This document shows positions 11,478 through 63,469 of a stretch of DNA of 64,000 bases, piece by piece. Within the stretch, counting starts at the first letter, position 1; each line of letters begins with the position of its first letter. Source of the stretch: an uncultured archaeon (GTDB lineage: Archaea; Micrarchaeota; Micrarchaeia; Micrarchaeales; CABMGC01); the NCBI GenBank assembly GCA_963752955.1, contig CAVWAD010000002.1, positions 8,573 through 72,572 of the forward strand, in the 5' to 3' direction. The notes beneath the pieces were generated by a model. It searched no databases. It saw only the letters and a list, made by a program, of their open reading frames with translations, and was not told where the DNA came from. The translations under genes were made by a program, and so were the position numbers.

Positions 11478-11478
11478 G

Positions 11479-12130: not shown

Positions 12131-12196
12131 GAACTCACTTTATATACTGTATATACTATATAGATATAAAAGGATTGCGTTTTTCATACGCCGTCG

Positions 12197-16799: not shown

Positions 16800-16881
16800 A
16801 AACTATGAGCAGAAAGAACGGGTTCGACGTCGTCAGGGAAGCACACTCTTCAGTGAACTTGCCACGACGAAACCGATGGCA

Positions 16882-28203: not shown

Positions 28204-28232
28204 TGGCGCCTGGGGCCGAGGCTTATTATTTA

Positions 28233-29753
28233 CTTGACTTCGCCACTTCTCTCGTAAACTGACGAAAACTATTTTTATGCCAAGGGCAGTATTCTCATTG
28301 ATAAGATGAAGAACACAACTACGCCCTTGGGCGGTATAGCTATCATCGACAAGATAGAAAATGATTTCGGTCTGCTCTCCTCGGTCTTCGGAGGGATCAT
28401 GAGTCCCGCATACGTCGGGCGGTTGAAACTGCTCCTCAACAACCGCCTGACTTTCGCGACGTCGATACACCAGGTAATTCCCACCTCCTCTGAAGACACC
28501 TGTGCGCTTCTCGGCGCAGAGGGCGCCTCGGAGAGGTCGCTGTACAGAACCGTCGAGAAAGTGGGGCTGCTCTCGGCGGCGATAGTAGAAAGGTATCAGA
28601 ACTTCCTCAACACGAGGGATCTCGCAGACAAGGACCAGAACATAGACTGGTCGTCGATATATTTCGAGGGGAATAAGGCCGAGATGGGCGCACTGGGTTA
28701 CTCCAGGGACCACCGCCCCGACAAGAAGCAGGTGACCTTCGGGATAGCGACGGGAATCAATGGAATCCCTACTGCACTGACGATTCAGAAGGGGAACGTC
28801 CTGGACAAGAAGCATTTTGTCGAGACGTACAACGTCGTCAAGAGGATACTGCAGAAGGATTCCCTATTGATATTCGACTGCGGCGCGAACACGAAAGGTA
28901 ACAAGGAGATGATAGTCCATGACAGGTTCAACTACCTGACCCTGAAGCAGAAGAACGTCAAGAACTATAGGAAATATATCGCCATGTTCAAGTCCGCGGA
29001 GAAATCGACGATAAAAATCGGCGACAACACCTACTTTGCGGCAGTGGTGGAAGAGAACGGCGAATTCCAATACATCTACTTCTCGAAGACGCTTCTCGAG
29101 ACGCAGATACGCAACAAGAACAGGAAGTTCGAAAGGCGAAAGAAGATGGGTAACAAACTCGCGAAGAAAGCGGGAAAACACAAGGCGGTGGAGACTTACC
29201 CCTGCGAGAGGGGATGGGTCGAACTCTACCCGGAACTCCAGACCGCACTGGGATGCGTCGAGAACCCCTACATAAACGGGATAGAGGGGTTCTTTATCCT
29301 CGAGAGCACGGTGAAAGCGAGTCCCGATGATATCCTGAGGATATACAAGCAAAGGGATGCCGCGGAGAAACTCGTGCGCAACATGAAGGAAGGGATCGAA
29401 CTGAGGCCTGTCAGGCACTGGACGAAATATGCAATAATCGGCGCAATCCTGATCGCATTCCTCGCGGAATCCCTGATAAGTTTGACACTGCTTTCATGCA
29501 AGAATCCCCTCGTCAAGAACGTAAAGCTCCTCAAAAAATACCTGACGAATTTGACAGCGACCTTCGTTTACCCTCCCGGAAGGTTCAAATTCACGGTAGT
29601 GAGCAACATTTCTCCCCCGATTTCGGAGATTTTCGGCAGTTTCCTGCGCAGATATGGTACGAAAAACCTCAATCTGCGCTGGTAGGAACCGTTTTGGCGA
29701 ATTGAGTTGGAGGCAACTGTCAGACACTTCGCGGCCTATTTGGCGAAGTCAAG
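28233..29753 (+). mobile_element. IS1634-family insertion sequence, copy B
   Basis: It has the same 1521-bp element and inverted repeats as copy A, in inverted orientation. A 7-bp target duplication TTATTTA lies at 28226-28232 and 29754-29760. Confidence 0.9.
28306..29685 (+). CDS. IS1634-family transposase
   Basis: The translation is identical to that of 17208..18587. Confidence 0.85.
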   Translation: MKNTTTPLGGIAIIDKIENDFGLLSSVFGGIMSPAYVGRLKLLLNNRLTFATSIHQVIPTSSEDTCALLGAEGASERSLYRTVEKVGLLSAAIVERYQNFLNTRDLADKDQNIDWSSIYFEGNKAEMGALGYSRDHRPDKKQVTFGIATGINGIPTALTIQKGNVLDKKHFVETYNVVKRILQKDSLLIFDCGANTKGNKEMIVHDRFNYLTLKQKNVKNYRKYIAMFKSAEKSTIKIGDNTYFAAVVEENGEFQYIYFSKTLLETQIRNKNRKFERRKKMGNKLAKKAGKHKAVETYPCERGWVELYPELQTALGCVENPYINGIEGFFILESTVKASPDDILRIYKQRDAAEKLVRNMKEGIELRPVRHWTKYAIIGAILIAFLAESLISLTLLSCKNPLVKNVKLLKKYLTNLTATFVYPPGRFKFTVVSNISPPISEIFGSFLRRYGTKNLNLRW

Positions 29754-29766
29754 TTATTTATATATC
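29754..29766 (+). promoter_or_regulatory. TATA-like box of the giant surface-protein gene
   Basis: TTATTTATATATC lies about 30 nt upstream of the ATG at 29792. Its first 7 nt are the IS target duplication. Confidence 0.45.
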
Positions 29767-29791
29767 TAGTCAGTTACAGTATAACGTTTGT

Positions 29792-32700
29792 ATGCGAAGG
29801 CGAAAAACAGCCACGAGACCCGCATTACTGTACACCGCGCTGTTCCTGATCCTAGTCGCAGTCATCTCACTGAGCTTCATCCCCGCGAAATCGGCCGCGC
29901 ACGCGGGCGCGGCGGCGCAGTCCGTCGCGTTCTCCGCGCCGATTGCCTCGGGCGCGGGGCCGGCGAACGTGATCCGCCCCGCGGTCATGCAGGAAAGCTC
30001 GGAGTGCTCGGGCAATTCCGACTGCGCCTGCACGAATCCGTGGTGCTACTCGGACTCCGTTGGCGGGCCCGAGAGCTGCCATCCCTGCCCTTTGGGTTCG
30101 CAGCTGGGCCAATCGGCCGACGGGACGGCGATCTGCGCTTATAACAGCGGGGGCTCCATGCCTTTCAGCGCCGGGGCGTCCGGCACCTGCATCAGCGGAG
30201 TGCCGACCGCGAGCAGCACGGCGGCCCAGAGCATCGCGCCCGCGGGGACCCAGTGCTCGGCCGCCAACCCGTGCCCCTGCACGGAGTCGTGGTGCGTCGG
30301 AGGGAGCTGCCAGGCGTGCCCCCAGGGCTTCTACCCGAACGGCGTCGGGGAGTGCGAATCCTTGAGCGGCGGGAGCTATCAGGGCTTCACGACGTCGTCC
30401 GGCTGCACACCCAGCACCGCCGCGTCGACGATCAGCAACACGGGCGGGAGCATCGGGAGCGGGAGCGTGGCGGCGAACTGCCACGGCACCTCTGACTGCT
30501 ACTGCAGCGAACCTTACTGCGTGCAGGGGAACTGCTACCCGTGCCCTGCGAAATACAAGTGGGACAGCGAGACGTCGCAGTGCATATCGCTCGCAGATGG
30601 CTCCATATATTCCGGAACTGCGCCCACCGGCTGCATGAGCGGCATCGTGCAGACGTCGTCGGGCGAGAGCATAGGAAGCGGGAGCGTGGCGGCGAACTGC
30701 GCGAGCCCCGCCGACTGTTTCTGCAGCGAACCGTACTGCAACAGCGGGAACTGCTATCCCTGCCCGCCGACATACTACTGGAACAGCGAGAACTCGCAGT
30801 GCATATCGATCAGCAACGGCGCGGTATACTCCGGGGCGGCGCCCACAAACTGCAAGAGCACCCTTCCCTCGACTTCGGGCAACAGCGGCGGGAGCATCGG
30901 GAGCGGGAGCGTGGCGGCGAACTGCCATGGCACCTCCGACTGCTACTGTAGCAGCCCGTACTGCGTCCAGGGCGACTGCTACCCGTGCCCGTCGACATAC
31001 TACTGGGACAGCCCGGACGCGAAATGCGTATCGCTCGCCGACGGCTCCATCTACGCCGGCGCGAGGCCCACCGACTGCATGAGCGGCGTTCCGTCGACCG
31101 CCGCCACGGCGACCCAGACCACCTCGTCGGGAGGGACCCAGTGCTCGGCCACCAACCTGTGTTCCCAGTGCACTGATTCATGGTGCGTCAGCGGGGAGTG
31201 CCAGCCGTGCCCGTCCGGCTGCTACCTGAGCGGCGCGGGAGGGGCGTGCCTGTCCTATCCGTCGACGCCGGGGGCCAGCGGGGTAAGCAAGTGCGCGCTC
31301 GCCTCGTCTCCTGCCTCCACGTGCGGCAGCACGTCGTCCGGCGGAACTTCATCCAACGGCGTGGCTGGCGGCTCGACGCTCATCGTCAGCCTGCCCGGTT
31401 CCGCGGGCGTCGTTAGCATAGGAGCGGGCTCGCAGGCCGCGCAGCCGAGCGTGAAGACGACGGACGCGACCCTCACGTCGCCGCCCGCGCCCGCTGGCCT
31501 GTCGAAGATCTCGGCCGTCACAGTCAGCGTGACCCCGAACACGTCCGCGCCGGTCAGCGTGACGCTGCCCTACCCGTGCTCCGCGTCTTCGGGAGACATA
31601 GCGCCCTACGCCGTGGTCAACGGCGCGTGGAGCAAGATAGGCTCATTCACGATAAACCCGAAGGCGTGCTCAGTATCGTTTCCGATAAGCTCCGGGTCCC
31701 AGGCTTCCGGCGGCAGCGGCACAACGTCCCAGGCTTCCGGCAGCGGCGCTTCAACAGGCAGCGGGACCGCTTCGAGCGGCGGCGCTTCCTCGAACAGCGG
31801 CGGATTTCCCTCGGTCACGCTACCGATCCAGGCTTCTAGCGCCGTCGGCGCGCGCCCCTTAGTTCCCGCCATCGACGCCGCCCCCGCGGCGCAGGGCGGC
31901 GCTTCCCCAAACGCGGGAATCTCCCTTGACAGTTCGTCCTCGTCGGAGGGCACTTCCCAGACGGTGGGCATATTCGAGACGTCTTCCGGCTCATGCACCA
32001 ACTACTGCGACGGCGTCGGCGGATCCGGCGCCTCGTGCACTAGCATCATGAGCGTGGACGCGCAGGTGGTGCAGATCAGCATATGCCACCTCTACCAGAC
32101 GGTCACGACCGCCTTCGATAACCCGGGGTCGGAGCTGGCGGCGTCGGGACAGGCGGGGCCGTTCGACACCTCCCCGGCGAACGCGGTGAACGACTACAAC
32201 GCGCAGAGCGCGCTGCCCCTCCTCACCTGCCCGAACGCGCCCGAGAAGAACCCAACTGACGCAAGCTACTTCTACTCGGGAGCGGTCCCAAACGTGGCGG
32301 GCGACGCGTGCACGCCGGTGCCCTCGAGTCTGAAGACCGGCATAGACCTCCAGACCGATTTTTCGACCATGCAGATGGTCGCATACTCCTACAGCACCTC
32401 GCCGCTGCCCATACAGGTCAATGGCCACCTGGTGGAACAGCCCACCACGTTCTACGACTACGTGAGCATCGAGGACGCGAAGGTGAACCCCGACATGGTA
32501 GTGTCGAACGTCGGAAGCCTGCAGCTCGAGGACATCGCGTACTCGCCGATGATCCTGGATGGGTCGGGCGGCACGATATCTAGCGCCTTCGCGACCAACA
32601 GCTACGTCTTCGACGGCGTCCCGGCCTCGGCGCAGCACGCCATATGGACCTGGACCGCCCAGTTCGCGGACCTGTCCAACGCCGCGCCCGACCAGCAGAC

Positions 32701-35700
32701 AGTGGTGCTCACCGACCTCCGGGCGAGCTACTCATGGTCGCCGCAGGCGATACACCCCAGCAGCAGCTGCAGCTCCGTCCTGTACTCCTGCGTCTACAGC
32801 TACACCCTCACCGCGGTGACGTCGCTGAGCGGCATCGCCAACACCTACGTGCCCTTCAACGTGGTGACCCCGGACGGGCCGAAGCCGGTGAGCTCCAACG
32901 TACTTCCCTACTTCACGTTCGGCGCCTCGATGCCGACGCCGGACGGGCAGCCGATGTCGCAGTCCTACGACGTCTTCAGCCCGCTGAACTACTACACGCC
33001 GGGGAACTCCATCGAGATGTTCCCCATCAACACGCCGGGCGCGTTCTTCGTGCAGCGCGCCGTGAGCCCGCCCTTCACCAGCTACCTGCTCTCGATGCCC
33101 GAGGGCACGGTGAACAACGCCCTTGCCTTCGGCAGCGCGCTGGACGCCGCGTACGGCAGCGATCCGAAGTTGCCGCCGAGTCTCGTCAGCCTGAGTGCGG
33201 CGAATCCCGGCGCTGGCGCGGCGAATCCGTTCCCGGCCAACCCGATCTCGGTCACCGGCACGCCCGAGGGCTATGTCTTCGTACTAAATTCGAGCTGCAC
33301 GGGGCCGTATCCCTGCACGCCCACTTACTACCTCAGCATCCTCAGGCCGGTGGACAAGGGCTACTACAGCATCCCCGGCTACCAGCCGAACGGCGTGCCC
33401 CAGGCCGCCGCGGGGACCGACGCGGCGGCGAACGCCCTGTGGGCCGGCAACTGGAAGAGCTACTGGGAGAACGTCATGGCGCTGCAGAGCAACTCGATCT
33501 ACGTGGTTAACACGCTCACCCTCAGCACCCCCGGGACCCTCAAGGTGCCCGAGGGGACGGGCCTGCTCTCCGGCTACACCAAGCAGCTCCAGAGCCAGGA
33601 GTTCGGGCTCGGATGGGGGTTCGTGCCGCTCAACATAAGCGCCGACTCGAGCGGGGACGTCTTCATAACCGGCTCCGAGGGCGCGCTGCTGGGCCTGGGC
33701 GGCGGCTTCCCGGCGATAGTGGAGGTAAGCAACACGCTCAACCCCACGCAGACGCAGGTCACAGCGACGCCGCTCGACTGGTCGAGCAGCGTCGGGATCA
33801 ACGCCCTGCCCGAGATAGCGGCCACCTCCACAGGCGGGCTGATCTTCGCGACGGGCCCGAAGGAGGGCAAGATCTACGCGTTCGCGCCGTCAGGCGACGG
33901 GATCTCCAACGCCTACGACATCGACCTCGCTTACTCCGCCAGCACATCCGTGAGCGGATCCGGGACCGTGATGCTTAACGTGAGCTACTACCTGTACCAC
34001 GGCGGGCCCTACGGCGTCCCTATGAACGGCGCTGTGGTGAACGGGGTCCAGACGCCCAACGCCATCGACGGGAACAACAACCTCGACGCTGGCAGGGACT
34101 TCGACACCGACCTGCAGCACCACCCGCTCGGGATCCAGGAATCCGGGGGCTTCCTCTACGTTCTGGACGACTGGAGGGGCTACGCGGGCTCCAGGGAGTC
34201 CTGCCCGCTGCTGGGCTCCTGCACGTTCACGGGCGGGATGGCCTTCGACATGCTCTCTGTGAGGGTGCTCAACTCCACGGGTTCGAACCTGCCCGTGGAC
34301 CCTACGCGCTTCAACGACATGTGGCAGTCGCAGTCGTGCGACAACCCGATGTTCCTGGGCCACACTTCCGGCGGCCTGTCGGCCGGCGACATCACACCGA
34401 GCGCCCCCACGATAAGCAGCGGGCAGTCCGTCACCCTCACCGCCAACCCCTCTGGAGGGACGCCTCCGTACACCTACGGCTGGTACGTGGACCCCGGCTG
34501 CACGTCGCAGATAGCCAGAGCGGCATCCAGTACCTACACCACGTCCCCGACGGGCACGGACACCTTCTATTACAAGGTCAAAGACAGCGCCGCGACTCCC
34601 GCGACGGTGTGCTCCGCGGGAGACACCGTGACCGTGAGCAACGGCGGCGGAGGAAGCGGCATCGGAGCAGCGACCTGCGGCGGACCGATACTCCCGCCCT
34701 GCCCGGCTTCGGGCAGCGCCTCCCAGAGCGGCGGCACCGCTTCGGGTACCGCACCAGCCTCGCAGACTCCGAGCGCCGGCTCGCAGCCCGTGCAGGCCGA
34801 CGTGAACACGTGCTACGACACGACCAAGCCGCCGGCAACTTCCATACCCACGTGCTCGCCGAAGGAGTGCAGCCTCGCCATGGCGGGCTGCGACCTCCCG
34901 GGCGGGGTCGTCGGGACCAAGTTCTCGTGCGAGGACAAGAGCACGGGTAGCGGAGCCTACTCCACGCTCGCCACGAGCCAGTACGCCAGCGGCACCTACC
35001 CCCCCTATGGCTGGGTCCTCTCAGCGGACGTCGTCCCGTGGGGCGGCGAGGGACCCGCCGACAATGCCAAGGAGGTGACCTTCTGCTCCTCGTCGGGATG
35101 CTCGTTCAACCCGGGCAAGATGCCGGGCCCGGACATGTACTCCGGCGGCTACACGCCAGTCGGGCCCGAGCTCTCTGTCGCGAACGCGGAGATAGACTCG
35201 CCCGCCTTCTCGGTGAACTTCAACGGCACGCTTGACCTGCTGCTGAACACGCCGAAGCCGGGCATAGTATCGAGCCTGTGCAGCTTCTTCCTCGGCGCGC
35301 TCTGCGGAAAGCCGCCCAACCCGACGGCCTATTCAGAACTGCTCACCGCGGACCTCAACATACTGAACTACACGAAGATCCTCCAGGGCGAGCCGGCGTA
35401 CACCTGCTACACGACGGACACCAACGACCAGAACTACCGCGCCGGAGGGTGCAACTACCTGCCGGAACTGGGCGACAGCGCGTACACCGGCCCGATATAC
35501 ACTTTCCCGAACCCGCTCGAGTACCTAGAGAGGGTGGGCGGCGCGCAGACGCTGAGCTTCGCAGGCCAGGTGTCCTCGTCATACCCGTCGGGCACCAGCC
35601 ACGAGGGCTGCCAGAGCCTGATAACCGGGGGTCAGGGATGCACGTCCAACGCGCTGTACAACCCCGGCCCGCCCGCGCTGACGATCCAGCAGGATCCCGT

Positions 35701-38122
35701 CGGGTGGGGGCAGCCCGACGTCATAACCGGCAAGGCGGAGGCGGCGACCGACGAGGTCGTCATCTACTTCAACAACGAGGTGGCGATGACCGGAACCGGC
35801 ACCGCGTCGTTCACCGTATCCGGCAATCCTGCGATATGCACCAACCCCGGCAGCGTCACCGAACAGTACACCCTGCCCATCGAGAACTGCCCGCCGCCCC
35901 GCGCGGAACCGTACTCCGTGAACGTTGTCGACCTAACGACCGGCCAGTACAACGCCAACGCGCTGACCGTATATCCCGCGCCGCTCCTTGCGCTGCAGAG
36001 CTCCACGGTAGACGTCGAGCAGTCGGGCGCCGGGAACTCGTGCACCAGCGACCTCATAACCGCGAACGCGCTGGACAACGTGGGCACCGTCGTCATATCC
36101 ATAGCGGAACCCGGGGGCGGCGAGGTCGCGAGCGCCTCTGGCACGGGCTCCGCCTACTACATAATACCGGGCAGCGCCGGGCTCTGCGACGGCCTCACCG
36201 CGGGCACGTACACCGTCACCGCGAGCGTGGCCGGCCAGAGCCCCGTCAGCCAGAGCCTCTACGTCAGCACGACCACGACCCAGCAGGCCCTGCCGGCCGG
36301 GTCGGTGGCGACGCAGGCGCTGTCGACCAGCGTGGGCGGCTATGTTGTGGTGCCCTATAAGTACACCTACTCACTGCAGCAGGACTGGGGCGGCGCCGCC
36401 GAGGTCGTCAGCCTGTCCAGCACCACGCAATGTGACTGCAAGACGGGCTGCAGGACGCCTACTGTGGGAGCCGACTGCCCCTACAACGTGGTCCCCGACC
36501 GGCAGTTCTCGCAGCAGACGGTCTACAGCTACGCGCTCACGAGCGGCACTTCGGATACGCTGACCGCGACGGTCGAGAGCGGCGACACCTACCTGAAGAG
36601 CCTCAGCTCCGGCACGCTCTACGTCCCGAACATGTCCGACGCGGGCGTAGTGGTGCCTCCGCAGGTGCTCTACGTCCTTATGAACAACAGGCTCTTCGGC
36701 ACGCTCTACGTCAACGACACTGGCTGCAAGCATAACGGCGCCTCGGTCTGGGACTGCTCCGGGAACCCGCAGTACGTGCTCAACGCGACCAGGCAGGACA
36801 AGTACGCCATGAACTCATACTCGCAAGACGGCGGCGGCGCCGGTGGCTCCGGAAGCTACGAGACCCTGCAGGTCCTGCCCGAGGAGGAGCCCGAGTACGG
36901 CGCGAACCTCATAGCCCCGTCCCAGCTCCAGCAGGCGGTGACCACCCAGAACGCGATCGGCTTCGCGTACGAGCTGACGGGCGGGATGGACTTCGTCTCG
37001 ATCTTCGACCTCTACAGGCAGGTCGCCTACTCCAACCCGCTCTACATGTACCTCAACAGCACGCCGTTCTTCGAGAACGGGCTGCCGGTCAACGCGATGG
37101 GCTACCACAGGCTGACGTACGTCATGGAGGACAGGTTCGGCAACAGGATCATGGCGCCGATGGACGTCGACGTGGCCAACCCAGTGACGATAGCCCTCAA
37201 CGTCAGCACCGCGGTGGACCAGAACAACGCCAACCAGACCGCCCTCACGATAAACGGGGTCGCCGGGTCGTACTCGGACTTCGGCACGGTCTTCACCCCG
37301 CTGCCGGCGGGCCAGCCGGTATACCTCTACTACAACAGCAACCTCAACTACGTCGAGTACAACCCCATGCGCAACCCGCTCGACGCCGTCATCTGCGCCT
37401 ACAACCTCAACGACCCGACGAAGCAGCCGTGCCACCAGTCCGACCCGACTTACACCGGAAGGCAGGCGAACGCCGGCCAGATGACTTTCGCGACGTCGTA
37501 CAACTCCGCAAGCCCGGACGAGTGCAACCCCCCGCCGAACAGCCTGCTGGCCAAGAGCTGGACACCGTGCAACGTCTACGGGAACCTCGACCTCCCCTCG
37601 GCGTGCACCGGCGCGGGGCCGCAGCAGTTCTGCATGCCCGTGTACGCCAACGGCACGGGCGAGTGCACGTCGCAGCTCGGGCTCTTCGCGATCGCCCAGA
37701 CCGACGCCAGCGGCGCGTTCAGCGCAAACATAATAGCGTGCGGGAGCAGGCAGGACGAGATAACCGCGCAGTACTACGGATGGTCACCTACGCCGGAGCC
37801 GATCTCCGTGACGCAGGTGCCGCTCGCGCTCTCCGAGAGCAGGGTCAACACGCCGGGCTCAGCGGGGAGCGCGGCGATAACGTCCAACGAGCTCAACTAC
37901 TACTCGGCTCCGGCGCAGGCCACGACGACTTTCACGATAGGCCTCTTCGAGCTCAACTACGGCGACCTTGGGGTAGCCGCGTTCGGAATCGGCATAGTGG
38001 CGGTGCTGGCGATCCTGGTCGCGAAGAAGGCGGCGGAGGATAGGAGGGCGAAGAGGCGGCGCGTCGGGGTCCGCGGCCGGACGGCAGCAGGAAGGATGCG
38101 GAGGCGGACGCCTCCGATGTAG
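29792..38122 (+). CDS. giant (2776 aa) secreted, C-terminally membrane-anchored cell-surface protein with Cys-rich modules
   Basis: The signal peptide reads MRRRKTATRPALLYTALFLILVAVISLSF..AKSAA. It is followed by six tandem 8-Cys modules, S/T/G-rich linkers, an Ig/PKD-like segment (SGGTPPYTYGWY) and many N-x-S/T sequons. The C-terminus has a TM helix (VAAFGIGIVAVLAILVA) and a basic tail. The track ORF start at 29654 lies inside the IS and is an artefact. Confidence 0.85.
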   Translation: MRRRKTATRPALLYTALFLILVAVISLSFIPAKSAAHAGAAAQSVAFSAPIASGAGPANVIRPAVMQESSECSGNSDCACTNPWCYSDSVGGPESCHPCPLGSQLGQSADGTAICAYNSGGSMPFSAGASGTCISGVPTASSTAAQSIAPAGTQCSAANPCPCTESWCVGGSCQACPQGFYPNGVGECESLSGGSYQGFTTSSGCTPSTAASTISNTGGSIGSGSVAANCHGTSDCYCSEPYCVQGNCYPCPAKYKWDSETSQCISLADGSIYSGTAPTGCMSGIVQTSSGESIGSGSVAANCASPADCFCSEPYCNSGNCYPCPPTYYWNSENSQCISISNGAVYSGAAPTNCKSTLPSTSGNSGGSIGSGSVAANCHGTSDCYCSSPYCVQGDCYPCPSTYYWDSPDAKCVSLADGSIYAGARPTDCMSGVPSTAATATQTTSSGGTQCSATNLCSQCTDSWCVSGECQPCPSGCYLSGAGGACLSYPSTPGASGVSKCALASSPASTCGSTSSGGTSSNGVAGGSTLIVSLPGSAGVVSIGAGSQAAQPSVKTTDATLTSPPAPAGLSKISAVTVSVTPNTSAPVSVTLPYPCSASSGDIAPYAVVNGAWSKIGSFTINPKACSVSFPISSGSQASGGSGTTSQASGSGASTGSGTASSGGASSNSGGFPSVTLPIQASSAVGARPLVPAIDAAPAAQGGASPNAGISLDSSSSSEGTSQTVGIFETSSGSCTNYCDGVGGSGASCTSIMSVDAQVVQISICHLYQTVTTAFDNPGSELAASGQAGPFDTSPANAVNDYNAQSALPLLTCPNAPEKNPTDASYFYSGAVPNVAGDACTPVPSSLKTGIDLQTDFSTMQMVAYSYSTSPLPIQVNGHLVEQPTTFYDYVSIEDAKVNPDMVVSNVGSLQLEDIAYSPMILDGSGGTISSAFATNSYVFDGVPASAQHAIWTWTAQFADLSNAAPDQQTVVLTDLRASYSWSPQAIHPSSSCSSVLYSCVYSYTLTAVTSLSGIANTYVPFNVVTPDGPKPVSSNVLPYFTFGASMPTPDGQPMSQSYDVFSPLNYYTPGNSIEMFPINTPGAFFVQRAVSPPFTSYLLSMPEGTVNNALAFGSALDAAYGSDPKLPPSLVSLSAANPGAGAANPFPANPISVTGTPEGYVFVLNSSCTGPYPCTPTYYLSILRPVDKGYYSIPGYQPNGVPQAAAGTDAAANALWAGNWKSYWENVMALQSNSIYVVNTLTLSTPGTLKVPEGTGLLSGYTKQLQSQEFGLGWGFVPLNISADSSGDVFITGSEGALLGLGGGFPAIVEVSNTLNPTQTQVTATPLDWSSSVGINALPEIAATSTGGLIFATGPKEGKIYAFAPSGDGISNAYDIDLAYSASTSVSGSGTVMLNVSYYLYHGGPYGVPMNGAVVNGVQTPNAIDGNNNLDAGRDFDTDLQHHPLGIQESGGFLYVLDDWRGYAGSRESCPLLGSCTFTGGMAFDMLSVRVLNSTGSNLPVDPTRFNDMWQSQSCDNPMFLGHTSGGLSAGDITPSAPTISSGQSVTLTANPSGGTPPYTYGWYVDPGCTSQIARAASSTYTTSPTGTDTFYYKVKDSAATPATVCSAGDTVTVSNGGGGSGIGAATCGGPILPPCPASGSASQSGGTASGTAPASQTPSAGSQPVQADVNTCYDTTKPPATSIPTCSPKECSLAMAGCDLPGGVVGTKFSCEDKSTGSGAYSTLATSQYASGTYPPYGWVLSADVVPWGGEGPADNAKEVTFCSSSGCSFNPGKMPGPDMYSGGYTPVGPELSVANAEIDSPAFSVNFNGTLDLLLNTPKPGIVSSLCSFFLGALCGKPPNPTAYSELLTADLNILNYTKILQGEPAYTCYTTDTNDQNYRAGGCNYLPELGDSAYTGPIYTFPNPLEYLERVGGAQTLSFAGQVSSSYPSGTSHEGCQSLITGGQGCTSNALYNPGPPALTIQQDPVGWGQPDVITGKAEAATDEVVIYFNNEVAMTGTGTASFTVSGNPAICTNPGSVTEQYTLPIENCPPPRAEPYSVNVVDLTTGQYNANALTVYPAPLLALQSSTVDVEQSGAGNSCTSDLITANALDNVGTVVISIAEPGGGEVASASGTGSAYYIIPGSAGLCDGLTAGTYTVTASVAGQSPVSQSLYVSTTTTQQALPAGSVATQALSTSVGGYVVVPYKYTYSLQQDWGGAAEVVSLSSTTQCDCKTGCRTPTVGADCPYNVVPDRQFSQQTVYSYALTSGTSDTLTATVESGDTYLKSLSSGTLYVPNMSDAGVVVPPQVLYVLMNNRLFGTLYVNDTGCKHNGASVWDCSGNPQYVLNATRQDKYAMNSYSQDGGGAGGSGSYETLQVLPEEEPEYGANLIAPSQLQQAVTTQNAIGFAYELTGGMDFVSIFDLYRQVAYSNPLYMYLNSTPFFENGLPVNAMGYHRLTYVMEDRFGNRIMAPMDVDVANPVTIALNVSTAVDQNNANQTALTINGVAGSYSDFGTVFTPLPAGQPVYLYYNSNLNYVEYNPMRNPLDAVICAYNLNDPTKQPCHQSDPTYTGRQANAGQMTFATSYNSASPDECNPPPNSLLAKSWTPCNVYGNLDLPSACTGAGPQQFCMPVYANGTGECTSQLGLFAIAQTDASGAFSANIIACGSRQDEITAQYYGWSPTPEPISVTQVPLALSESRVNTPGSAGSAAITSNELNYYSAPAQATTTFTIGLFELNYGDLGVAAFGIGIVAVLAILVAKKAAEDRRAKRRRVGVRGRTAAGRMRRRTPPM
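30005..31330 (+). repeat. six tandem ~75-aa Cys-rich coding modules
   Basis: The module consensus is C-x5-6-C-x-C-x3-(W/Y)C-x3-4-C-x2-CP...C...C. The DNA stretches starting at 30443 and 30887 are identical for 41 nt and have 3 mismatches over about 67 nt. Confidence 0.85.
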
Positions 38123-38163: not shown

Positions 38164-39394
38164 GGCTTCATCCCATAATTCATGCCGACGCTAATCCTGA
38201 CCTTTTCGGGCGGTAAGATTTTGTTCCTTTCCGTCGATGCCACATTATGGGAAAGCCCAAAAGGAGGGCAAACCCGAAGGTGGTAACGAGAGTCGATAGA
38301 AACATAGCGGTATTGACCGCAAAGACCGCGAAGAGATTCGCCAATAGGCTTCCTCCCCCTTGGGAGAAGAAGACGAGGGGAAGTCCCCCGATACACGACA
38401 GCAGAACAGTATTCGTGCTGTGCCTCCTAATGGTCTCCCTGAACCTGACTTATGATGGCATGGAGGTGGAAAAACGGAAGGGATACCTTCAACAGGTGTT
38501 GAAGGCCCCGAACCTCCCGAGTCGTAGCGCATTACATCGAGGAATGCAACGACTTGATCAAAAATACATCAGGAAGTTCAATAAACTTCTCGTTAGGAAG
38601 TTTGTCAACAAGGGAATGACCGTTGCGGTGGATTCGACAGGGATACGACTGATGGTCAGCAGTTCGTGGTACGACATCCGAATTGGGAGGGTCAACAAAA
38701 GGAGGGACAACGCGAAATTGCACATATCTGTGGCCCTGCGAAGAAACATTATCGTAGGATACAAGATAACGTCGTGGAAACGAAACGATTCGCCGCAACT
38801 GGGGTTCCTATTGCGCGACATCGACGAACTTCTCCAGGTGCTGGGAGATGCAGGATACCTCGGCCGAGACAACTGCAACGTAGTTGCCAGCAAGAACGGG
38901 AGGCCGTTCTTCGCCCTTAAGGATGGAGTAAAAAGCAGGGCGAAAGGTTCGCAGGCATGGAAGGAGATGGTCGTATTCGCGAGGAAAAAGAAGGAGCTGT
39001 ACGACGCGATTTATCATGCGCGTTCGGTGATAGAAAGCATCTTCTCCGCGGTAAAGAGACGGTATGGAAGTTGCGTAAGGGCTGTGAATCGGAAGACGCG
39101 AAACATGGCGATCGCGCTGAGGGTGATCGCCTTCAACATAAAACAGCGCCTCTACGACGCAACGGCAAGGCGACTAGGGTTGCCATTCTGGGTAAAGTGC
39201 GACCGGTAAAAAGGACCTGAAGGTCATCAACAGTTAGCGGAAGCGAAGTCACATGAGTTCTAGGCCGATGTTTTCCGTCGAAATCTACGCCTTTTTCAGA
39301 AAATCGATGCCACATACGGCCCAGAACATGCAGACAATTCTTTCTCATCGACGGACAACCGCCTTCGCGGCGTCATTCTTTATGGGATGAAGCC
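38164..39394 (+). mobile_element. IS5-family-like insertion sequence (1231 bp)
   Basis: Perfect 15-bp inverted repeats GGCTTCATCCCATAA (38164-38178) and TTATGGGATGAAGCC (39380-39394) bound the element. A 9-bp target duplication TACCATGGG lies at 38155-38163 and 39395-39403. Confidence 0.9.
38247..39209 (+). CDS. DDE transposase, IS4/IS5 superfamily
   Basis: The 320-aa protein has VAVDSTGIRL, LGDAGYLGRD and a YHARSVIESIFSAVKRRYG (Y-x2-R-x3-E) region. Confidence 0.85.
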   Translation: MGKPKRRANPKVVTRVDRNIAVLTAKTAKRFANRLPPPWEKKTRGSPPIHDSRTVFVLCLLMVSLNLTYDGMEVEKRKGYLQQVLKAPNLPSRSALHRGMQRLDQKYIRKFNKLLVRKFVNKGMTVAVDSTGIRLMVSSSWYDIRIGRVNKRRDNAKLHISVALRRNIIVGYKITSWKRNDSPQLGFLLRDIDELLQVLGDAGYLGRDNCNVVASKNGRPFFALKDGVKSRAKGSQAWKEMVVFARKKKELYDAIYHARSVIESIFSAVKRRYGSCVRAVNRKTRNMAIALRVIAFNIKQRLYDATARRLGLPFWVKCDR

Positions 39395-40896: not shown

Positions 40897-40968
40897 GGGC
40901 TTGTAGCGCAACGGTAGCGCGTCTCGTTTGCAACGAGAAGGTTACGGGTTCGAATCCCGTCAAGTCCA
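40897..40968 (+). tRNA. tRNA-Ala (anticodon UGC)
   Basis: The cloverleaf has acceptor GGGCTTG/CAAGTCC with the G3:U70 Ala identity pair, anticodon stem TCTCG/CGAGA, loop TTTGCAA and T-arm ACGGG-TTCGAAT-CCCGT. Confidence 0.9.
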
Positions 40969-40996
40969 CTTTTCGATCTGATGGGACGGCCTAGGC

Positions 40997-41266
40997 CTAG
41001 TATTTATCTGGATGATGCTCGAGATTCACCAAGGAGACTATCTGTTCCTTGTCGTCAACTCTGAACATCAGCACAAACCTGCCGTGCATCAGGTGCACTT
41101 CCCGTACGCCGGCATAGCTGCCATGCATCCATTTGCCTGCCGTATAAGGCGCTTCGGCTATCTTGTCAAGCTTTTTCATAAGCTGATAATAAAGCGCCCT
41201 GTCCCGCTTCTGCAATCTGGCAAGCTCGGCTTCCACACTCTCTACGGGCCTTACCAGATACGTCAT
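40997..41266 (-). CDS. RelE/ParE-family toxin
   Basis: The 89-aa protein has the C-terminal pattern GRFVLMFRVDDKEQIVSLVNLEHH. It lies immediately downstream of a small antitoxin ORF. Confidence 0.65.
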   Translation of the reverse strand: MTYLVRPVESVEAELARLQKRDRALYYQLMKKLDKIAEAPYTAGKWMHGSYAGVREVHLMHGRFVLMFRVDDKEQIVSLVNLEHHPDKY

Positions 41267-41277
41267 TCTAACACGAA

Positions 41278-41505
41278 TTAGGCAAGATTGCGTCTCTTTA
41301 TCGCCCTGTCAAGCTCAGAAACAGATCTGTAAGTGTGGTATTTGCCTTTCGACAGCTCCATGAGCCCGCGTTCCAGCCCAAGGTTCCGCTTCTGACTTAC
41401 CACTTTCCTCAGTACCTTGACCTCGGCTTCAAGGCGGCCTATTTTGGCCGCCATACCCTTCAGTTCCTTCATAATCTGTACCTGTTCGGCCTTCATGTCC
41501 ATCAA
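41278..41505 (-). CDS. antitoxin partner (75 aa, coiled-coil)
   Basis: It is positionally coupled, 11 nt upstream of the toxin. It is similar in layout to 46972..47172. Confidence 0.5.
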   Translation of the reverse strand: MMDMKAEQVQIMKELKGMAAKIGRLEAEVKVLRKVVSQKRNLGLERGLMELSKGKYHTYRSVSELDRAIKRRNLA

Positions 41506-41627
41506 ATATTATGTGATTATAATGACTTAATAATCTTGCGTATGACAGTGAGATTGAGCGACATCTTTAGATAGCCAATTATTGATGCCATGAGGACTTA
41601 TGATGTAGTTTGTATCGTCTGGCAGCA

Positions 41628-41667
41628 AAAATACGCCTCACCTTATGTAGTAAGTCCGTCAAGTCCA
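41628..41667 (+). repeat. cassette junction A: conserved arm plus a 12-nt copy of the tRNA-Ala 3' end
   Basis: AAAATACGCCTCACCTTATGTAGTAAGT is followed by CCGTCAAGTCCA, which equals 40957-40968. It matches junction B at 37/40. Confidence 0.9.
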
Positions 41668-41678
41668 TCTAACCCAGG

Positions 41679-41897
41679 CTAGACGTACTTGAGGATATCT
41701 TCTTTTGTCAAGTTGCAATCGCTTAGGATCTTATTTAGTATTCCCTGCCCCAGTTCCCTGTTGTGGTAGGGAATCGTGGTGTAGTGCTGACCGTCGGTCA
41801 AGAAAATATGGCTTCCCTTTTGCCTAAGGGCGCGGTAGTTGTAGTATTTAGTAAGTATCTTGAGCAAACCCGTGTCTTTGATGGTCAGACGAGGCAT
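41679..41897 (-). CDS. hicA: HicA-family toxin
   Basis: The protein has the pattern RQKGSHIFLTDGQHYTTIPYHNRELGQGILNKIL. Confidence 0.8.
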   Translation of the reverse strand: MPRLTIKDTGLLKILTKYYNYRALRQKGSHIFLTDGQHYTTIPYHNRELGQGILNKILSDCNLTKEDILKYV

Positions 41898-41911
41898 ATG
41901 ACCACCGATCC

Positions 41912-42097
41912 TTAGACGCTGGCTCTAATGGCGATCTTATTCTTGCGCATCTCAACTAGGCCTTCGACTGTGACCTCTATGGCCTCTTTCAGGTTCTTTT
42001 TAAGCTCCCTTATCGTCTTTGCCTGAGTGTTTATGTGGAGCGAGGGTATTCGCGCAGCGTACATCCCTTTCTCCTTCCATATTTCTATGTTTTGCAT
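41912..42097 (-). CDS. hicB: HicB-like antitoxin (UPF0150 type)
   Basis: This 61-aa ORF lies upstream of hicA and has the YAARIPSL..TQAKTIRELKKNLKEAIE pattern. Confidence 0.65.
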   Translation of the reverse strand: MQNIEIWKEKGMYAARIPSLHINTQAKTIRELKKNLKEAIEVTVEGLVEMRKNKIAIRASV

Positions 42098-42159
42098 GCG
42101 CCTACCAAATATATTATGCTATGAAAACTTATAAAGCAGTTAGCCGTCTTCCGGTATCG

Positions 42160-42205
42160 AAAATACCCCTCACCTTACGTCGTAAGTCCGTCAAGTCCAC
42201 TTTTC
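42160..42205 (+). repeat. cassette junction B: conserved arm plus an 18-nt copy of the tRNA-Ala 3' end and its downstream flank
   Basis: AAAATACCCCTCACCTTACGTCGTAAGT is followed by CCGTCAAGTCCACTTTTC, which equals 40957-40974. Confidence 0.9.
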
Positions 42206-49003: not shown

Positions 49004-49109
49004 ACCACGCGTTCCGATCAGTAGCTTTGATGCTCATTTATTGAGCTTTTTATCCTTAAATATATGCGCATTATGATGTCTTTGCACCTAAATCGACTTA
49101 AAATGCGAA

Positions 49110-49141
49110 TTTTAGGTGCAACTTTCACCTTTTAGGTGCAA
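49110..49141. repeat. 32-bp subterminal direct repeat, left copy
   Basis: TTTTAGGTGCAACTTTCACCTTTTAGGTGCAA is identical to 50484-50515. It contains two TTAGGTGCAA motifs and the palindrome CACCTTTTAGGTG. Confidence 0.95.
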
Positions 49142-49209
49142 GATTAACTTAGATGCAAAGCCGGACCAAGGTATAGTAAAGGATCATTTAAAAACCCAGC
49201 TATGCTATT

Positions 49210-50307
49210 ATGAACATGGCAGTTATAGGGATAGATACCCTATCCATCGATATAAAAAACTCTCAACGTCAGAATGCAAAAGAATCATCTTTTGCATTTA
49301 GAACCATTCTTGGAGTTGGAGTCGTAGTAAATGATTATGAAAAATTTAGATTGGCGTATTCAGAAGCTATATTAAAAGCGTTCAAAACAATTTCATATAC
49401 TGAAAAAGAAAAGGAAGTTTATTGCAATTACGATTTCAGGAAAATATATGAACTTAGCAATGCCCCCGTACATAACTTGTTTTTCAGGGAAATTTCAAAG
49501 CACATAGATGGGCTATATGTCTTTAACACAACTTTTTCAAAATCAACAAAGATGTTTGCCTATAGTGAGATAAGCGAAGAGCTAGGGCATAAGCTTTCTG
49601 AAGACGCATTTGATTTTGATAAGGCAATAAATAAGATAACTGCTTACTTTCCTCTGATTGGAGTATGGTGTGATAGGGACTATCTGCGCGATGAAGTCTC
49701 ACAGATATATATTGATGGAATTACTCCGATACGTTTCAATGGCTGGAGAAACATCCAGCATCTGCCCCTAGAGATTTTATTCGAAGGAGATAAGTGCAAT
49801 GCTGTAATCGCAACCGCGGATATCATTGCATATCTTATTAGTATGAGATTGCGCCAAAAACGGCTAAAATACGGCGAGGATGGATTCAGGGAAGCACTGC
49901 CAGAGCTAAACGATAGATTACGGTATGTTGCTGTTACTCGAGGATTTTTCAAGTATATAAACCCGGTCAGTAATAAAAACTTGAATATTAACAGTTACCT
50001 AAACCATCCCATAATATTCTTATTCAAAGACGAAGCCAAACAAGTTACAACAGAAGTAATTCGTGCATTACCTGGATTCGACTCTGTTTATAATTTTGCT
50101 TTTAGGAAAAATGGGTCTGTTAAATTCTTCGACAAACAAAACGACCAAGGTAAAATCAGAGAGGGCGACTATATAGTTTATTTTTCTGAAGATGGTAAAA
50201 GAGAACTAAGTACAATTAAAGGAGTTATGGGAGAGAACATAAACCTTCTAAGCTTTGACCAAGTGCGCAAAGAAGGTGTTTATAAACATGCCAAACCGCA
50301 AGGATAA
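49210..50307 (+). CDS. uncharacterised 365-aa protein (possible RNase-H-like/DUF3800-like fold)
   Basis: This is an intact AT-rich ORF. The only motif-level hints are the N-terminal VIGIDT and a later NAVIATADIIAYLIS. No confident family assignment was made. Confidence 0.6.
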   Translation: MNMAVIGIDTLSIDIKNSQRQNAKESSFAFRTILGVGVVVNDYEKFRLAYSEAILKAFKTISYTEKEKEVYCNYDFRKIYELSNAPVHNLFFREISKHIDGLYVFNTTFSKSTKMFAYSEISEELGHKLSEDAFDFDKAINKITAYFPLIGVWCDRDYLRDEVSQIYIDGITPIRFNGWRNIQHLPLEILFEGDKCNAVIATADIIAYLISMRLRQKRLKYGEDGFREALPELNDRLRYVAVTRGFFKYINPVSNKNLNINSYLNHPIIFLFKDEAKQVTTEVIRALPGFDSVYNFAFRKNGSVKFFDKQNDQGKIREGDYIVYFSEDGKRELSTIKGVMGENINLLSFDQVRKEGVYKHAKPQG

Positions 50308-50483
50308 TCTTATATAGCCAGACGTTCTGTAAATAATTACGCCATGCACTATACCAGGGGCATGTCTACCTTGCATAGATATGTATGTGGGGCAACGTTC
50401 GCGTTGCCTCACCAGTAAAGTCTCTCTAGTTCGGCGGATTACTAAAAAGCCATTTAAGTACGCTATTTCTTATAGGAGTTCCT

Positions 50484-50515
50484 TTTTAGGTGCAACTTTC
50501 ACCTTTTAGGTGCAA
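50484..50515. repeat. 32-bp subterminal direct repeat, right copy
   Basis: This copy is identical to 49110-49141. Confidence 0.95.
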
Positions 50516-50620
50516 AATCGACTTTAAGTGCAAAGCCCATTATGATATCCACTCCAGAGAGTCGCCACATTACAGAAAGGGATATAAATTCGGGATCAGA
50601 TATTTAACCGTGGCGTTAGG

Positions 50621-62586: not shown

Positions 62587-62629
62587 ATGGAGGCACAGGT
62601 CATCCTACGTCAGGTGATGTGCATTTTCG
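62587..62629. repeat. cassette junction: 13-nt copy of the tRNA-Val 3' end plus the conserved arm
   Basis: ATGGAGGCACAGG (62587-62599) equals 63398-63410. The adjacent 62600-62627, reverse-complemented, gives AAAATGCACATCACCTGACGTAGGATGA, which matches the tRNA-Ala junction arm at 20/28. Confidence 0.85.
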
Positions 62630-62652
62630 GTGTTGCAGGCAACCTTATGGAA

Positions 62653-63069
62653 TTACATTATACTTTTCTTCAGCAATAACGACAAGTCGCCTATTGAGAA
62701 TATCTTTACTTTGCGCTGTTTCCTAAAATCGGTATCATAACTCCATATACCATCTGCGCGCAGACTCAGCGCGAGTGCGATATAGGGTTCATCGTCCTTG
62801 TCTATGCCTCCTATCACCTTATGAGCTTCTCTCATACTTTTCGCGTAAAACTGTTTCGGCATTATCCTGATTTTCTTAGTGATGAGTTCCAAGGCGGATT
62901 TGTATCCCTTTCCGGTTTTGGCAGATATTTCTTTTTCGTGTTCCTTTATCTCATCAAGCAGGAAGTCAGGCGAATAATAGTCAATATAGGGATAAAGCAG
63001 CACTTCCCTCGTTATTGAAGATCTGACCAACGCAGCAACAACTACATTGGCATCGACTACTATCTTCAT
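62653..63069 (-). CDS. vapC: PIN-domain toxin (VapC-like)
   Basis: The MKIVVDANVVVAAL start is present and the protein is 138 aa. It overlaps the antitoxin stop by 4 nt. Confidence 0.8.
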   Translation of the reverse strand: MKIVVDANVVVAALVRSSITREVLLYPYIDYYSPDFLLDEIKEHEKEISAKTGKGYKSALELITKKIRIMPKQFYAKSMREAHKVIGGIDKDDEPYIALALSLRADGIWSYDTDFRKQRKVKIFSIGDLSLLLKKSIM

Positions 63070-63287
63070 AGGCCATGCCTTTTGGCTACACCCTGCTTTA
63101 TCTTTTGACCTATTTCTATGGCGTCCTTCTCAGTTAGCTCGGATTTTTCAAGAAGTCTATCCAGTATGGCCAGCTTTCTGGCGTATTCCTGCATCGCACG
63201 CCTGGCGACTTCGCTCCACCTTATCTGCTTGTGCTTCTTTATTGTCTTGTATAGTTCTTCGGATATGGATATCGTTACATTCGGCAT
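63066..63287 (-). CDS. vapB: VapB-type antitoxin (RHH-like)
   Basis: The 73-aa protein begins MPNVTISISEELYKTIKK (a beta-strand followed by a helix) and is translationally coupled to vapC. Confidence 0.65.
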   Translation of the reverse strand: MPNVTISISEELYKTIKKHKQIRWSEVARRAMQEYARKLAILDRLLEKSELTEKDAIEIGQKIKQGVAKRHGL

Positions 63288-63398
63288 TCAATTCACATAT
63301 ATTATGTGAACTCACATATATTTAACTATTTGTATAAATCTGGGTTTGAGCAAAATAGTTATGAGAATTGGCCGAAGTCCACCGTACTTAAGGTGCGA

Positions 63399-63469
63399 TG
63401 GAGGCACAGGGAATCGGACCCCGGCTTGCAGAATGTCAATCTGCCGTCCTACCACTAGACTATGCCTCC
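63399..63469 (-). tRNA. tRNA-Val (anticodon GAC)
   Basis: The cloverleaf has acceptor GGAGGCA/TGCCTCC, D-stem GTCT/GGAC, anticodon stem GCAGA/TCTGC, loop TTGACAT and T-arm CGGGG-TCCGATT-CCCTG. Confidence 0.85.

Follow-up and report, generated by a model that had tools for sequence, protein, structure and literature searches.

How do toxin-antitoxin (TA) pairs come to lie directly behind the tRNA genes of an archaeon, each between two copies of the tRNA's own 3' end, and what is the short conserved sequence that precedes the distal copy? The question arises from a 64,000-nucleotide (nt) stretch of an uncultured member of the Micrarchaeota (GenBank assembly GCA_963752955.1, contig CAVWAD010000002.1, positions 8,573 to 72,572; hereafter the window). 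A preliminary description, made from the sequence alone, had noticed an arm of about 28 nt beside tRNA-end cores at two TA segments behind tRNA-Ala and one behind tRNA-Val, and had proposed a family of small TA cassettes inserted through an attC-like site by a recombinase supplied in trans. The insertions, the arm at their distal end and the core as breakpoint have stood up to our analysis, whereas the attC-like part has not, and no recombinase was found in any of the loci searched. We consider it slightly better than even, at roughly 55%, that arm and core form the att-site junction of non-autonomous, lineage-restricted integrative TA cassettes, which would enter site-specifically at tRNA positions 62-73, build up in tandem and need a recombinase whose gene lies elsewhere. 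Little is known of how DPANN archaea, including Micrarchaeota, exchange genes, and their genomes are tiny; at this locus, TA cassettes without an integrase accumulate behind tRNA genes.

The tRNA-Ala locus displays the arrangement most completely. The tRNA-Ala(TGC) gene (40897..40968, plus strand), called by ARAGORN like the other tRNA genes of the window, is intact and also matches the Rfam tRNA model (75 bits). Its last 12 nt, CCGTCAAGTCCA (40957-40968, plus strand; tRNA positions 62-73), make up the first copy of the core and the putative attB-type target. Cassette A (40969..41667, 699 nt) follows immediately. Its open reading frames (ORFs) encode a RelE/YafQ/ParE-like toxin (40997-41266, minus strand), whose family matches (Pfam ParE_toxin E=5e-4; NCBIfam YafQ 1e-7 and RelE_StbE 2e-5) fall below the curated cut-offs, and a small antitoxin (41278-41505, minus strand), and the cassette closes with arm A, AAAATACGCCTCACCTTATGTAGTAAGT (41628..41655, plus strand; nhmmer E=2e-12), and the second core copy, again CCGTCAAGTCCA (41656..41667, plus strand), a direct repeat of the first at the junction between cassettes A and B. 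Cassette B (41668..42199, 532 nt), with about 81% nucleotide identity to both HicAB cassettes of the related contig L082 described below, carries HicA (41679-41897, minus strand; Pfam HicA_toxin 8.7e-9) and HicB (41912-42097, minus strand; Pfam UPF0150 1.6e-4), followed by arm B, AAAATACCCCTCACCTTACGTCGTAAGT (42160..42187, plus strand; nhmmer E=1e-12), and a third core copy. There, at 42188..42205 (plus strand), CCGTCAAGTCCA is followed by CTTTTC and the native downstream sequence restarts; as CTTTTC follows both tRNA-Ala itself and the third core copy, this region shares 18 nt with the tRNA locus at 40957-40974 (CCGTCAAGTCCACTTTTC). The likeness between the two Ala arms reaches 53 nt at 85% (41615-41667 versus 42147-42199).

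The same layout is found, on the minus strand, at tRNA-Val(GAC) (63399..63469; ARAGORN), which is intact and likewise matched by Rfam. Its core, CCTGTGCCTCCA (63399-63410 on the plus-strand ruler; tRNA positions 62-73), is followed by the Val cassette (62600..63398), whose VapBC pair consists of the ribbon-helix-helix protein VapB (63066-63287, minus strand; RHH_12) and the PIN-domain toxin VapC (62653-63069, minus strand; Pfam PIN_2 1.1e-22). Downstream of vapC lie the Val arm, AAAATGCACATCACCTGACGTAGGATGA in tRNA orientation (62600-62627, minus strand; nhmmer E=7e-10), and the distal core copy (62588-62599, minus strand), which belongs to a 13-nt direct repeat (62587-62599 and 63398-63410), so that the segment after tRNA-Val measures 811 nt. 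The stretch of identity reaches, in tRNA-Ala and tRNA-Val alike, from position 62 (the second base on the 3' side of the T stem) to the discriminator base. A 208-amino-acid (aa) ORF with an internal repeat (61867-62493; no family match) begins 95 nt past the distal Val core, on the strand of the tRNA; its G+C content at third codon positions (GC3) is 0.59, and L063, a relative with tRNA-Val and an orthologous VapBC cassette, lacks it at the corresponding place.

A fourth TA-only cassette, overlooked by the preliminary description, lies at tRNA-Leu (12196-12282, minus strand; ARAGORN; whole locus 11449-12282). Its VapB (11882-12130, minus strand) and VapC/PIN protein (11479-11910, minus strand; PIN 4e-11) occupy 11479-12130, and a degenerate copy of the tRNA-Leu 3' end, of 29-31 nt and identical at 28/31 positions (11449-11477, minus strand), closes the cassette, here without any arm. 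Ala, Val and Leu are the window's three tRNA genes, and all three therefore carry a TA-only cassette at their 3' side. Each pair consists of two small adjacent or overlapping genes with one toxin-family match per pair, as expected of type II TA systems, and cassettes A, B and Val hold no further plausibly coding ORF of at least 40 aa. The family matches of the TA genes also include VapB_Sulfo (1e-11). The cassettes are 0.53-0.81 kb long, and the non-coding DNA around each TA operon amounts to 11-160 nt in the six cassettes compared (window A, B, Val and Leu, and the two of L082). The claim that no cassette contains a recombinase is thereby borne out, there being no ORF beyond the TA pair.

The arm is not a random likeness. 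With a tolerance of three mismatches, the pattern AAAATNCNCNTCACCTNANGTNG occurs in the 64 kb only at 41628 (plus), 42160 (plus) and 62605-62627 (minus), against 0.11 matches expected, and none of 100 shuffled sequences reached three matches. At each of these places the arm adjoins, directly 5', the distal 12-13-nt copy of the tRNA end (Ala-A, Ala-B and Val). The identities counted by hand in the preliminary description, 25/28 between Ala-A and Ala-B and 20/28 between Ala-B and Val, proved correct on re-reading. An nhmmer profile built from six arms was searched over the window and 14 related loci, about 197 kb in total, and found seven distinct arms at E<1e-4: three in the window, one in L063 and three in L082, L083 and L084. 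Directly behind each of the seven, and in register, stands a core of tRNA-Ala or tRNA-Val or a degenerate one, as predicted if arm matches are tied to tRNA-end repeats, and the loci with an empty site gave no match to the profile. The invariant positions of the seven arms read AAA.T.C......C.T...GT.G...G..C.

The arm is common to different cargo (RelE/ParE-like, HicAB and VapBC) and to different tRNAs (Ala and Val). It lies upstream of the operons in the Ala cassettes and downstream of vapC in the Val cassette, and the view that it belongs to the distal end of the cassette is upheld, since it stays there regardless of the cargo or its orientation. This bears directly on the idea that the arm has no relation to recombination and serves the TA operons or their neighbours as a regulatory or RNA element (an operator, promoter, terminator or small RNA). 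Even though the arm has an A-rich stretch and short palindromes, and TA operators are often palindromic, we regard this explanation as very improbable: the arm changes sides relative to the genes yet always keeps its register with the core, it accompanies antitoxins of three unrelated families, the TA promoters are located elsewhere, in a block that is 89% conserved, and no Rfam family matches it. Two further candidates were tried and rejected. The arm could be a degenerate tRNA T arm (9/17 identical for Val and 9/13, with a gap, for Ala, by hand count), but the likeness between the Ala and Val arms exceeds that of either to its own tRNA; it could also be the primer-binding site of a retroelement, but its orientation is inconsistent among the cassettes.

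As had been proposed, comparison with relatives shows the TA-only segments to be separate insertions at the 3' ends of tRNA genes. The glycosyltransferase encoded beside the locus has homologues in the hundreds that are labelled Candidatus Micrarchaeota at their sources. In L079, a JGI contig of a related Micrarchaeota whose glycosyltransferase is 86% identical to that of the window, the same acidic-protein/tRNA-Ala locus is empty and reads ...GTCCA/CTTTTCTT (GTCCACTTTTCTTTGG); CTTTTCTTTGG, which directly follows tRNA-Ala there, matches the flank after the third core copy of the window. The syntenic tRNA-Ala locus of L081, a relative with a 78% identical glycosyltransferase, has no TA cassette, so that an empty target site is present at tRNA-Ala in both. 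In L082, a contig from a sister sample in ENA, tRNA-Ala is directly followed by a HicAB cassette. Cassette A is absent from L079, L081 and L082; it was inserted between tRNA-Ala and cassette B after the lineages had split. In L063, tRNA-Val is followed by the orthologous VapBC cassette (VapC 84% identical), and the genes flanking the locus differ from those of the window. The direct repeats bounding the insertions measure 12, 18 and 13 nt, one copy being the 3' end of the intact tRNA, and the composition of the cassettes (GC3 0.47-0.64; 0.56-0.60 in cassette A and 0.47 in the Val cassette) departs from that of the surrounding core genes (0.8-0.9).

Compact TA insertions that do without the arm were also seen in relatives further removed within the Micrarchaeota. 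In L065 (L065:5588-6695) a VapBC pair lies between diverged 70-nt promoter-region repeats, and in L093 (L093:900-2100) a HicAB pair lies between duplicated 3' ends of a membrane-protein gene. In L089 to L092 (L089:2500-5750), VapBC and ParE pairs are placed between tandem 1.8-kb units about 2 kb from tRNA-Val, with repeats of 150-300 nt in L089. L066, which holds a distant relative of the TA pairs, has neither an arm nor any flanking repeats whatever. From these comparisons, the arm is apparently one lineage-specific version of a wider habit, in which compact TA insertions sit between diverged repeats of the end of their target.

That the core is a real recombination breakpoint, as the preliminary description had held, is seen in the empty locus of L079 and the single cassette next to the tRNA in L082, and above all in a recombinant junction found in three further samples (L083, L084 and L085). 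In tRNA orientation, L082 presents tRNA-Ala, a first HicAB cassette (HicAB#1) with arm2 and a degenerate core, a 6.85-kb segment closed by arm1 and its core, a second HicAB cassette (HicAB#2) with arm3 and CCGTCAAGTCAA, and finally the native flank, TCTTCGTTGTCCTCC, the counterpart of CTTTTCTTGTCCTCC in the window. The 6.85-kb segment has a G+C content of 52%, versus 59% upstream of the tRNA. Within this array (L082:221-8345, minus strand), the segment carries a 233-aa winged-helix-like ORF beside the degenerate core, an AsnC-type regulator, an IS200/IS605 Y1 transposase gene, a radical SAM gene and a CYTH gene. The claim that the cassettes carry TA genes only thus holds for the window cassettes and fails here, where arm1 and its core, in L082 and L083, close a multi-gene segment of at least 6.8 kb.

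Whereas L082 joins the tRNA to HicAB#1 and the arm1 core to HicAB#2, L083, L084 and L085 join the arm1 core to HicAB#1. The 70 nt to the left of this junction are identical to the arm1 junction of L082 and the 70 nt to the right are identical to its tRNA junction, with the switch falling in CCGTCAAGTCCATCTTAC, an 18-nt block of identity. The core is therefore an active crossover point, and identities of 99-100% in the flanks mark the crossover as recent. On the left side of the core a T arm faces arm1, with no homology between them; one would therefore not expect general homologous recombination between the two HicAB copies of L082 (92% alike) to resolve at this boundary. Judged from the junction, it may represent the expected circular, attP-type form of the composite or, alternatively, another core-by-core exchange.

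The window and L063 also permit a view of the constraint on the arm. Between their Val cassettes, identity is 85% in the vapBC coding sequence, 89% in the promoter block, 68% in the arm and 10/12 in the core, whereas the 66 non-coding nt at the proximal side of the cassette are 36% identical, which is the aligner's level for unrelated sequence, and the outer flanks are unrelated. The L063 arm reads GGAAATAC---TCACCTAACGTGGGACGT and is followed by the degenerate core TCTGTGCATCCA.

These observations can be set against the main rival account, namely that the cassettes are fossils: larger integrated plasmids or viruses with an integrase of their own would have decayed to attL, the TA pair and attR, the loss of the TA genes being counter-selected, and the arm would be an inherited and disused flank of attP. 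Archaeal tRNA genes commonly hold the remnants of several integrations, some of them with vapBC (PMC3718332), and cis-mobilisable elements (CIMEs) are thought to arise through such decay (PMC5704250). The degenerate distal cores of L063 and L082, the lack of any recombinase and the drift of the arms of orthologous HicAB cassettes, all taken up below, fit it as well. However, at least six cassettes are all trimmed to the TA operon plus 11-160 nt, with no pseudogene debris, which is unlikely to result from independent random decay; arm and core have been kept (68-83%) where the neighbouring neutral DNA is saturated at 36%; the recombination at the core in L083 to L085 took place recently, between sequences 99-100% identical; and cassette A joined the array, between the tRNA and cassette B, after the lineage split. 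Taken together, we regard the fossil account as doubtful, though a serious contender. Should the cassettes merely be decay products, the locus would become an ordinary, though tidy, case of TA pairs outliving their carriers.

Several results weigh against the site-specific cassettes that we favour, and some of them are those on which the fossil account draws. The recombinase, looked for as the preliminary description had suggested, is encoded neither among the roughly 45 ORFs of the window nor in the 9 kb beyond its end (ENA ERZ25039471 contig_18973, of which the window is the reverse complement of a part), the 6.85-kb segment of L082 or 8 kb of L083; scans of these ORFs against Pfam, NCBIfam and PADLOC yielded only transposases of DDE insertion sequences (IS) and the one IS200/IS605 Y1 transposase. 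The distal cores are degenerate in L063 and in L082 (CCGTCAAGGCGT and the already mentioned CCGTCAAGTCAA), as expected for disused sites. The recombinant junction carries the composite of HicAB and at least 6.8 kb, not a TA-only cassette, and no read of a circle or of an empty site was seen from the window's own population: a look-up of the cassette A toxin led to two contigs, L087 and L088, both identical to the window, and since every copy retrieved in this way was identical, they reveal no variation among strains. An inverted proximal copy of the arm, such as is present in L082, is missing from cassettes A and B. Between the HicAB orthologues of window cassette B and L082, the arms are only about 61% identical, with bodies about 81% identical. 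Finally, the strict arm pattern has no match in 185,579 GTDB species genomes or in IMG/VR, a looser gapped pattern ending in ..CA gives 11 bacterial matches in GTDB, about the number expected by chance, and one in IMG/VR, and an 18-mer combining the end of the arm with the core has no match in IMG/VR.

The divergence of the HicAB arms has a particular form, as the likeness of cassette B to L082 stops within 3 nt of the point where its likeness to arm A of the window starts. Because of this switch and of the difference between arms and bodies, the arm module has apparently been exchanged apart from its cargo; it seems, from the alignments, to have been exchanged or converted independently of it, which does not explain the pattern fully. 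A 17-base version of the pattern matched JGI metagenome contigs 60 times, and since none of these matches precedes a tRNA-type core, we take them for chance. Viral contigs searched for relatives of VapC and HicA yielded none, and no autonomous partner with the same att sites was seen in the approximately 197 kb of the lineage or in the arm scans of GTDB, JGI and IMG/VR. The cassettes are a family in so far as the arm is shared within the lineage; outside it, in these three collections, the arm is missing, and the family should be called lineage-restricted.

With these points on both sides, the process we favour, integration of lineage-restricted cassettes through an att site, may be pictured as follows. 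Arm plus core would be the distal, attR-type junction left when small, probably circular, TA cassettes integrated into tRNA 3' ends. The 12-13-nt core would come with the cassette, provide the identity for strand exchange and restore the end of the tRNA, and the arm (AAAAT.C...TCACCT.A.GT.G.A.G) would be the cassette-borne half of the site, most likely the one bound by the recombinase. We infer that this recombinase would be of the tyrosine or serine class and supplied in trans. As the cassettes themselves encode none, they would therefore behave as cis- or trans-mobilisable, non-autonomous integrative elements, similar to CIMEs. They may accrete in tandem at the tRNA, recombine and travel with larger segments ending in the same arm and core, and their TA cargo would favour their retention. 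Predicted circle junctions are arm A-core-CTTTTCGATCTG, arm B-core-TCTAACCCAGG and Val arm-core-TCGCACCTTAAG, and the predicted empty or partial sites are tRNA-Ala-CTTTTCTTGTCC, tRNA-Ala joined to cassette B, and tRNA-Val-TATAACTCC.

The proximal ends of the cassettes add a detail that can be read in two ways. In L082, the HicAB cassettes begin with inverted arm-like copies (shuffle p<=0.001-0.005), e.g., GCACCTTACGTGACGTAAGA compared with TCACCTTACGT-CGTAAGT (p<=0.001), so that closing such a cassette into a circle would give the order arm-core-inverted arm, as in a two-sided recombinase site. In cassette B, a deletion of about 45 nt falls where the inverted proximal copy would be. The same ends could instead be terminal inverted repeats of a transposon-type cassette, i.e., a miniature inverted-repeat transposable element (MITE) or mobile insertion cassette, moved by a DDE transposase encoded elsewhere, with the 12-nt core as a target-site duplication made at a fixed tRNA position downstream of the conserved T loop. 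Mobile insertion cassettes are mobilised in trans by insertion-sequence transposases. In L082, the inverted arm-like ends of the HicAB cassettes directly abut the 12-nt direct repeats, tRNA-Ala and tRNA-Val are used in the same register, and the genome is rich in DDE insertion sequences, one of which, 1.5 kb long, has a terminus (ACTTGAC...) sharing a 7-mer with the reverse-complemented Ala core.

Nevertheless, we judge the transposon-type origin to be unlikely. The length of the repeat varies (12, 13 or 18 nt) and it is always the tRNA end; the outermost 8 nt or so of the two ends differ, the likeness lying further in (ACGT.AAGGTG), unlike transposon tips; cassettes A and B have no proximal inverted copy; the IS termini of the window do not resemble the arm; no arm copy is found away from a tRNA core; and the cassettes of tRNA-Leu, L065 and L093 are flanked by diverged repeats of 29-90 nt, which cannot be target duplications. 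The transposase of the 1.5-kb element was also considered as the mobiliser and rejected, its termini (ACTTGACTTCGCCA) being unrelated to the arm. The 7-mer at its tip, ACTTGAC, the reverse complement of part of the tRNA-Ala core, is probably a chance likeness.

The attC-like nature of the site, the remaining part of the preliminary description, raises the possibility that arm and core are recognised as a folded single strand, resembling attC or the hairpin at the end of an IS200/IS605 element, by an enzyme of the IntI-like or HUH (Y1) type, for which the core would be the point of cleavage or exchange. Single arms do fold somewhat better than their own shuffles (z -0.1 to -3.2; the Val arm is matched by 1/200 shuffles), some pair with their own core (arm3 over 7 bp, CTTGACG/CGTCAAG, and arm2 over 8 bp), and cassettes and sites alternate as in integron arrays. 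Integrons are known from archaea, as are attC clusters without an integrase, and TA cassettes abound in them (PMC9668308); moreover, a Y1 transposase gene lies within the L082 segment. Against this, RNAalifold found no consensus pair in the seven arms, the register of the stems differs from arm to arm, and the complementarity of arm and core is significant for arms 1-3 of L082 and L084 only, and not for the three window arms or that of L063 (p 0.26-1.0). The R' consensus of attC, GTTRRRY, is absent (the Ala sequence GTCAAGT has one mismatch and Val has no counterpart), neither IntI nor attI is present, Rfam searches of the loci matched the tRNAs alone, and 12-nt direct repeats are not made by IS200/IS605 elements. 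We therefore hold a folded site to be quite unlikely, and the proposed attC-like fold was not recovered. Because RNAalifold gives no consensus pairs, the arm is conserved at the level of its sequence, which favours a double-strand site recognised by sequence over an attC-like folded one.

Among known systems, the nearest kind would be, by analogy, the CIMEs with tandem accretion at tRNA 3' ends, which have been described in Firmicutes (PMC5704250). As in CIMEs, attL and attR derive from the tRNA 3' end and are kept without integrase or transfer genes, several elements stand in tandem at one tRNA, and composites recombine or excise via their outer sites, which may be compared with the junctions of L082 and L083 to L085, where recombination at att sites involved a composite and not a single TA cassette. 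Contrary to the CIMEs, the cassettes described here are archaeal (DPANN), are much smaller (0.53-0.81 kb), hold a TA operon only and have one conserved arm serving two tRNA targets, and neither an autonomous partner nor an integrase has been identified.

A second comparison is with the elements that enter archaeal tRNA genes via SSV-type or pNOB8-type tyrosine integrases (PMC4158269) and with their remnants (PMC3718332). They share with the cassettes the direct repeats formed by the 3' part of the tRNA, multiple or tandem insertions per tRNA and the frequent presence of vapBC in the islands. However, they carry beside the repeats an integrase or the split fragments int(N) and int(C), and the repeats usually measure 30-100 nt or more, whereas the present cassettes lack any int gene or fragment, have a core of 12-13 nt and share a non-tRNA arm; the integrase of their own that marks tRNA-site integrative elements is thus absent from the cassettes. 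We also tried the arm as a fragment of a split SSV-type integrase and discarded the idea, the cassettes being too small and no reading frame passing through the arm.

Integron cassettes and integrase-less attC clusters (CALINs), including those of archaeal integrons, rich in TA cassettes (PMC9668308), resemble the present arrays in their compactness, in the site that accompanies each cassette, in the TA cargo, in the exchange at boundaries and in that they may lie far from an integrase. They differ in that tRNA 3' ends act as the anchors here, IntI and attI are both lacking and none of the genes upstream encodes a recombinase; in addition, the site has 40-53 nt, is conserved in sequence with no conserved fold, lacks the R''/R' consensus and has a core that varies with the tRNA. 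As IntI and attI, the attC fold and the R' consensus are all absent, the cassettes do not belong to the integron family. A more speculative and rather tentative extension would nonetheless make them a tRNA-anchored, integron-like system of DPANN archaea, in which a recombinase would read the constant arm of about 28 nt, the swappable 12-nt core would pick the docking tRNA 3' end, and minimal TA cassettes and larger arm-ended segments would be shuffled between tRNA loci and episomes.

MITEs (PMC3718332) and mobile insertion cassettes are similarly short and non-autonomous, with some copies showing inverted end likeness and short flanking direct repeats. Contrary to them, the repeat is always a tRNA end and of no fixed length, the tips are not conserved, no matching IS was found and scattered copies are absent; inverted end likeness is restricted to the HicAB cassettes of L082, where it lies inside the tips. 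The 12-18-nt direct repeats and the lack of a consistent hairpin separate the cassettes from IS200/IS605-type palindrome-associated transposable elements (PATEs). A literature search returned no description of such cassettes in Micrarchaeota, and what distinguishes them is the constant arm with tRNA-specific cores, the extreme compactness and the missing recombinase. Should the arm serve for recognition and the core determine the target, the site would be modular, with a constant arm and an exchangeable core, and would point to an undiscovered recombinase. For annotation, island finders based on integrases cannot see such cassettes.

The remaining features of the window concern its insertion sequences and neighbouring genes. 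The 1.5-kb element mentioned above is present as two inverted copies of 1525 nt, 100% identical (17137-18661 and 28232-29756), with the termini already given and a 459-aa DDE_Tnp_1 transposase. The pair brackets 9.6 kb containing glycosyltransferase genes, an STT3-like gene and an AbiEii/AbiEi type IV TA pair (24113-25412). A histidine-phosphatase-like ORF (937-1191 and 2212-2610) seems to have been interrupted by an IS5-like DDE transposase gene (1222-2169), and a second IS5-like copy (38247-39209) lies just upstream of the tRNA-Ala locus. A giant ORF (29654-38122; 2822 aa, GC3 0.88), whose first residues repeat the start of a small ORF inside the insertion sequence (16850-17239), has giant genes of about 2000-2260 aa at the comparable place in L079 and L081. 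Exact-protein look-ups of GrpB and P0054 returned no record.

Away from the tRNA genes, the region 49066-50549 holds a lone 365-aa ORF (49210-50307; GC3 0.33) with no Pfam or PADLOC match, flanked by direct repeats of 41 nt (49110-49150 and 50484-50524) that are 93% identical and made of TTTAGGTGCAA units. By its composition and repeats, this region is apparently another single-gene insertion bounded by direct repeats. The single-sequence AlphaFold model of its protein was unusable (mean confidence score, pLDDT, 34). A nucleotidyltransferase gene (NTP_transf_2/Polbeta) and two small ORFs (L001:7301-8050), located just past the window's end and upstream of the RNase Z-like gene beside tRNA-Val, probably make up another TA-type pair, of the MNT/HEPN kind.

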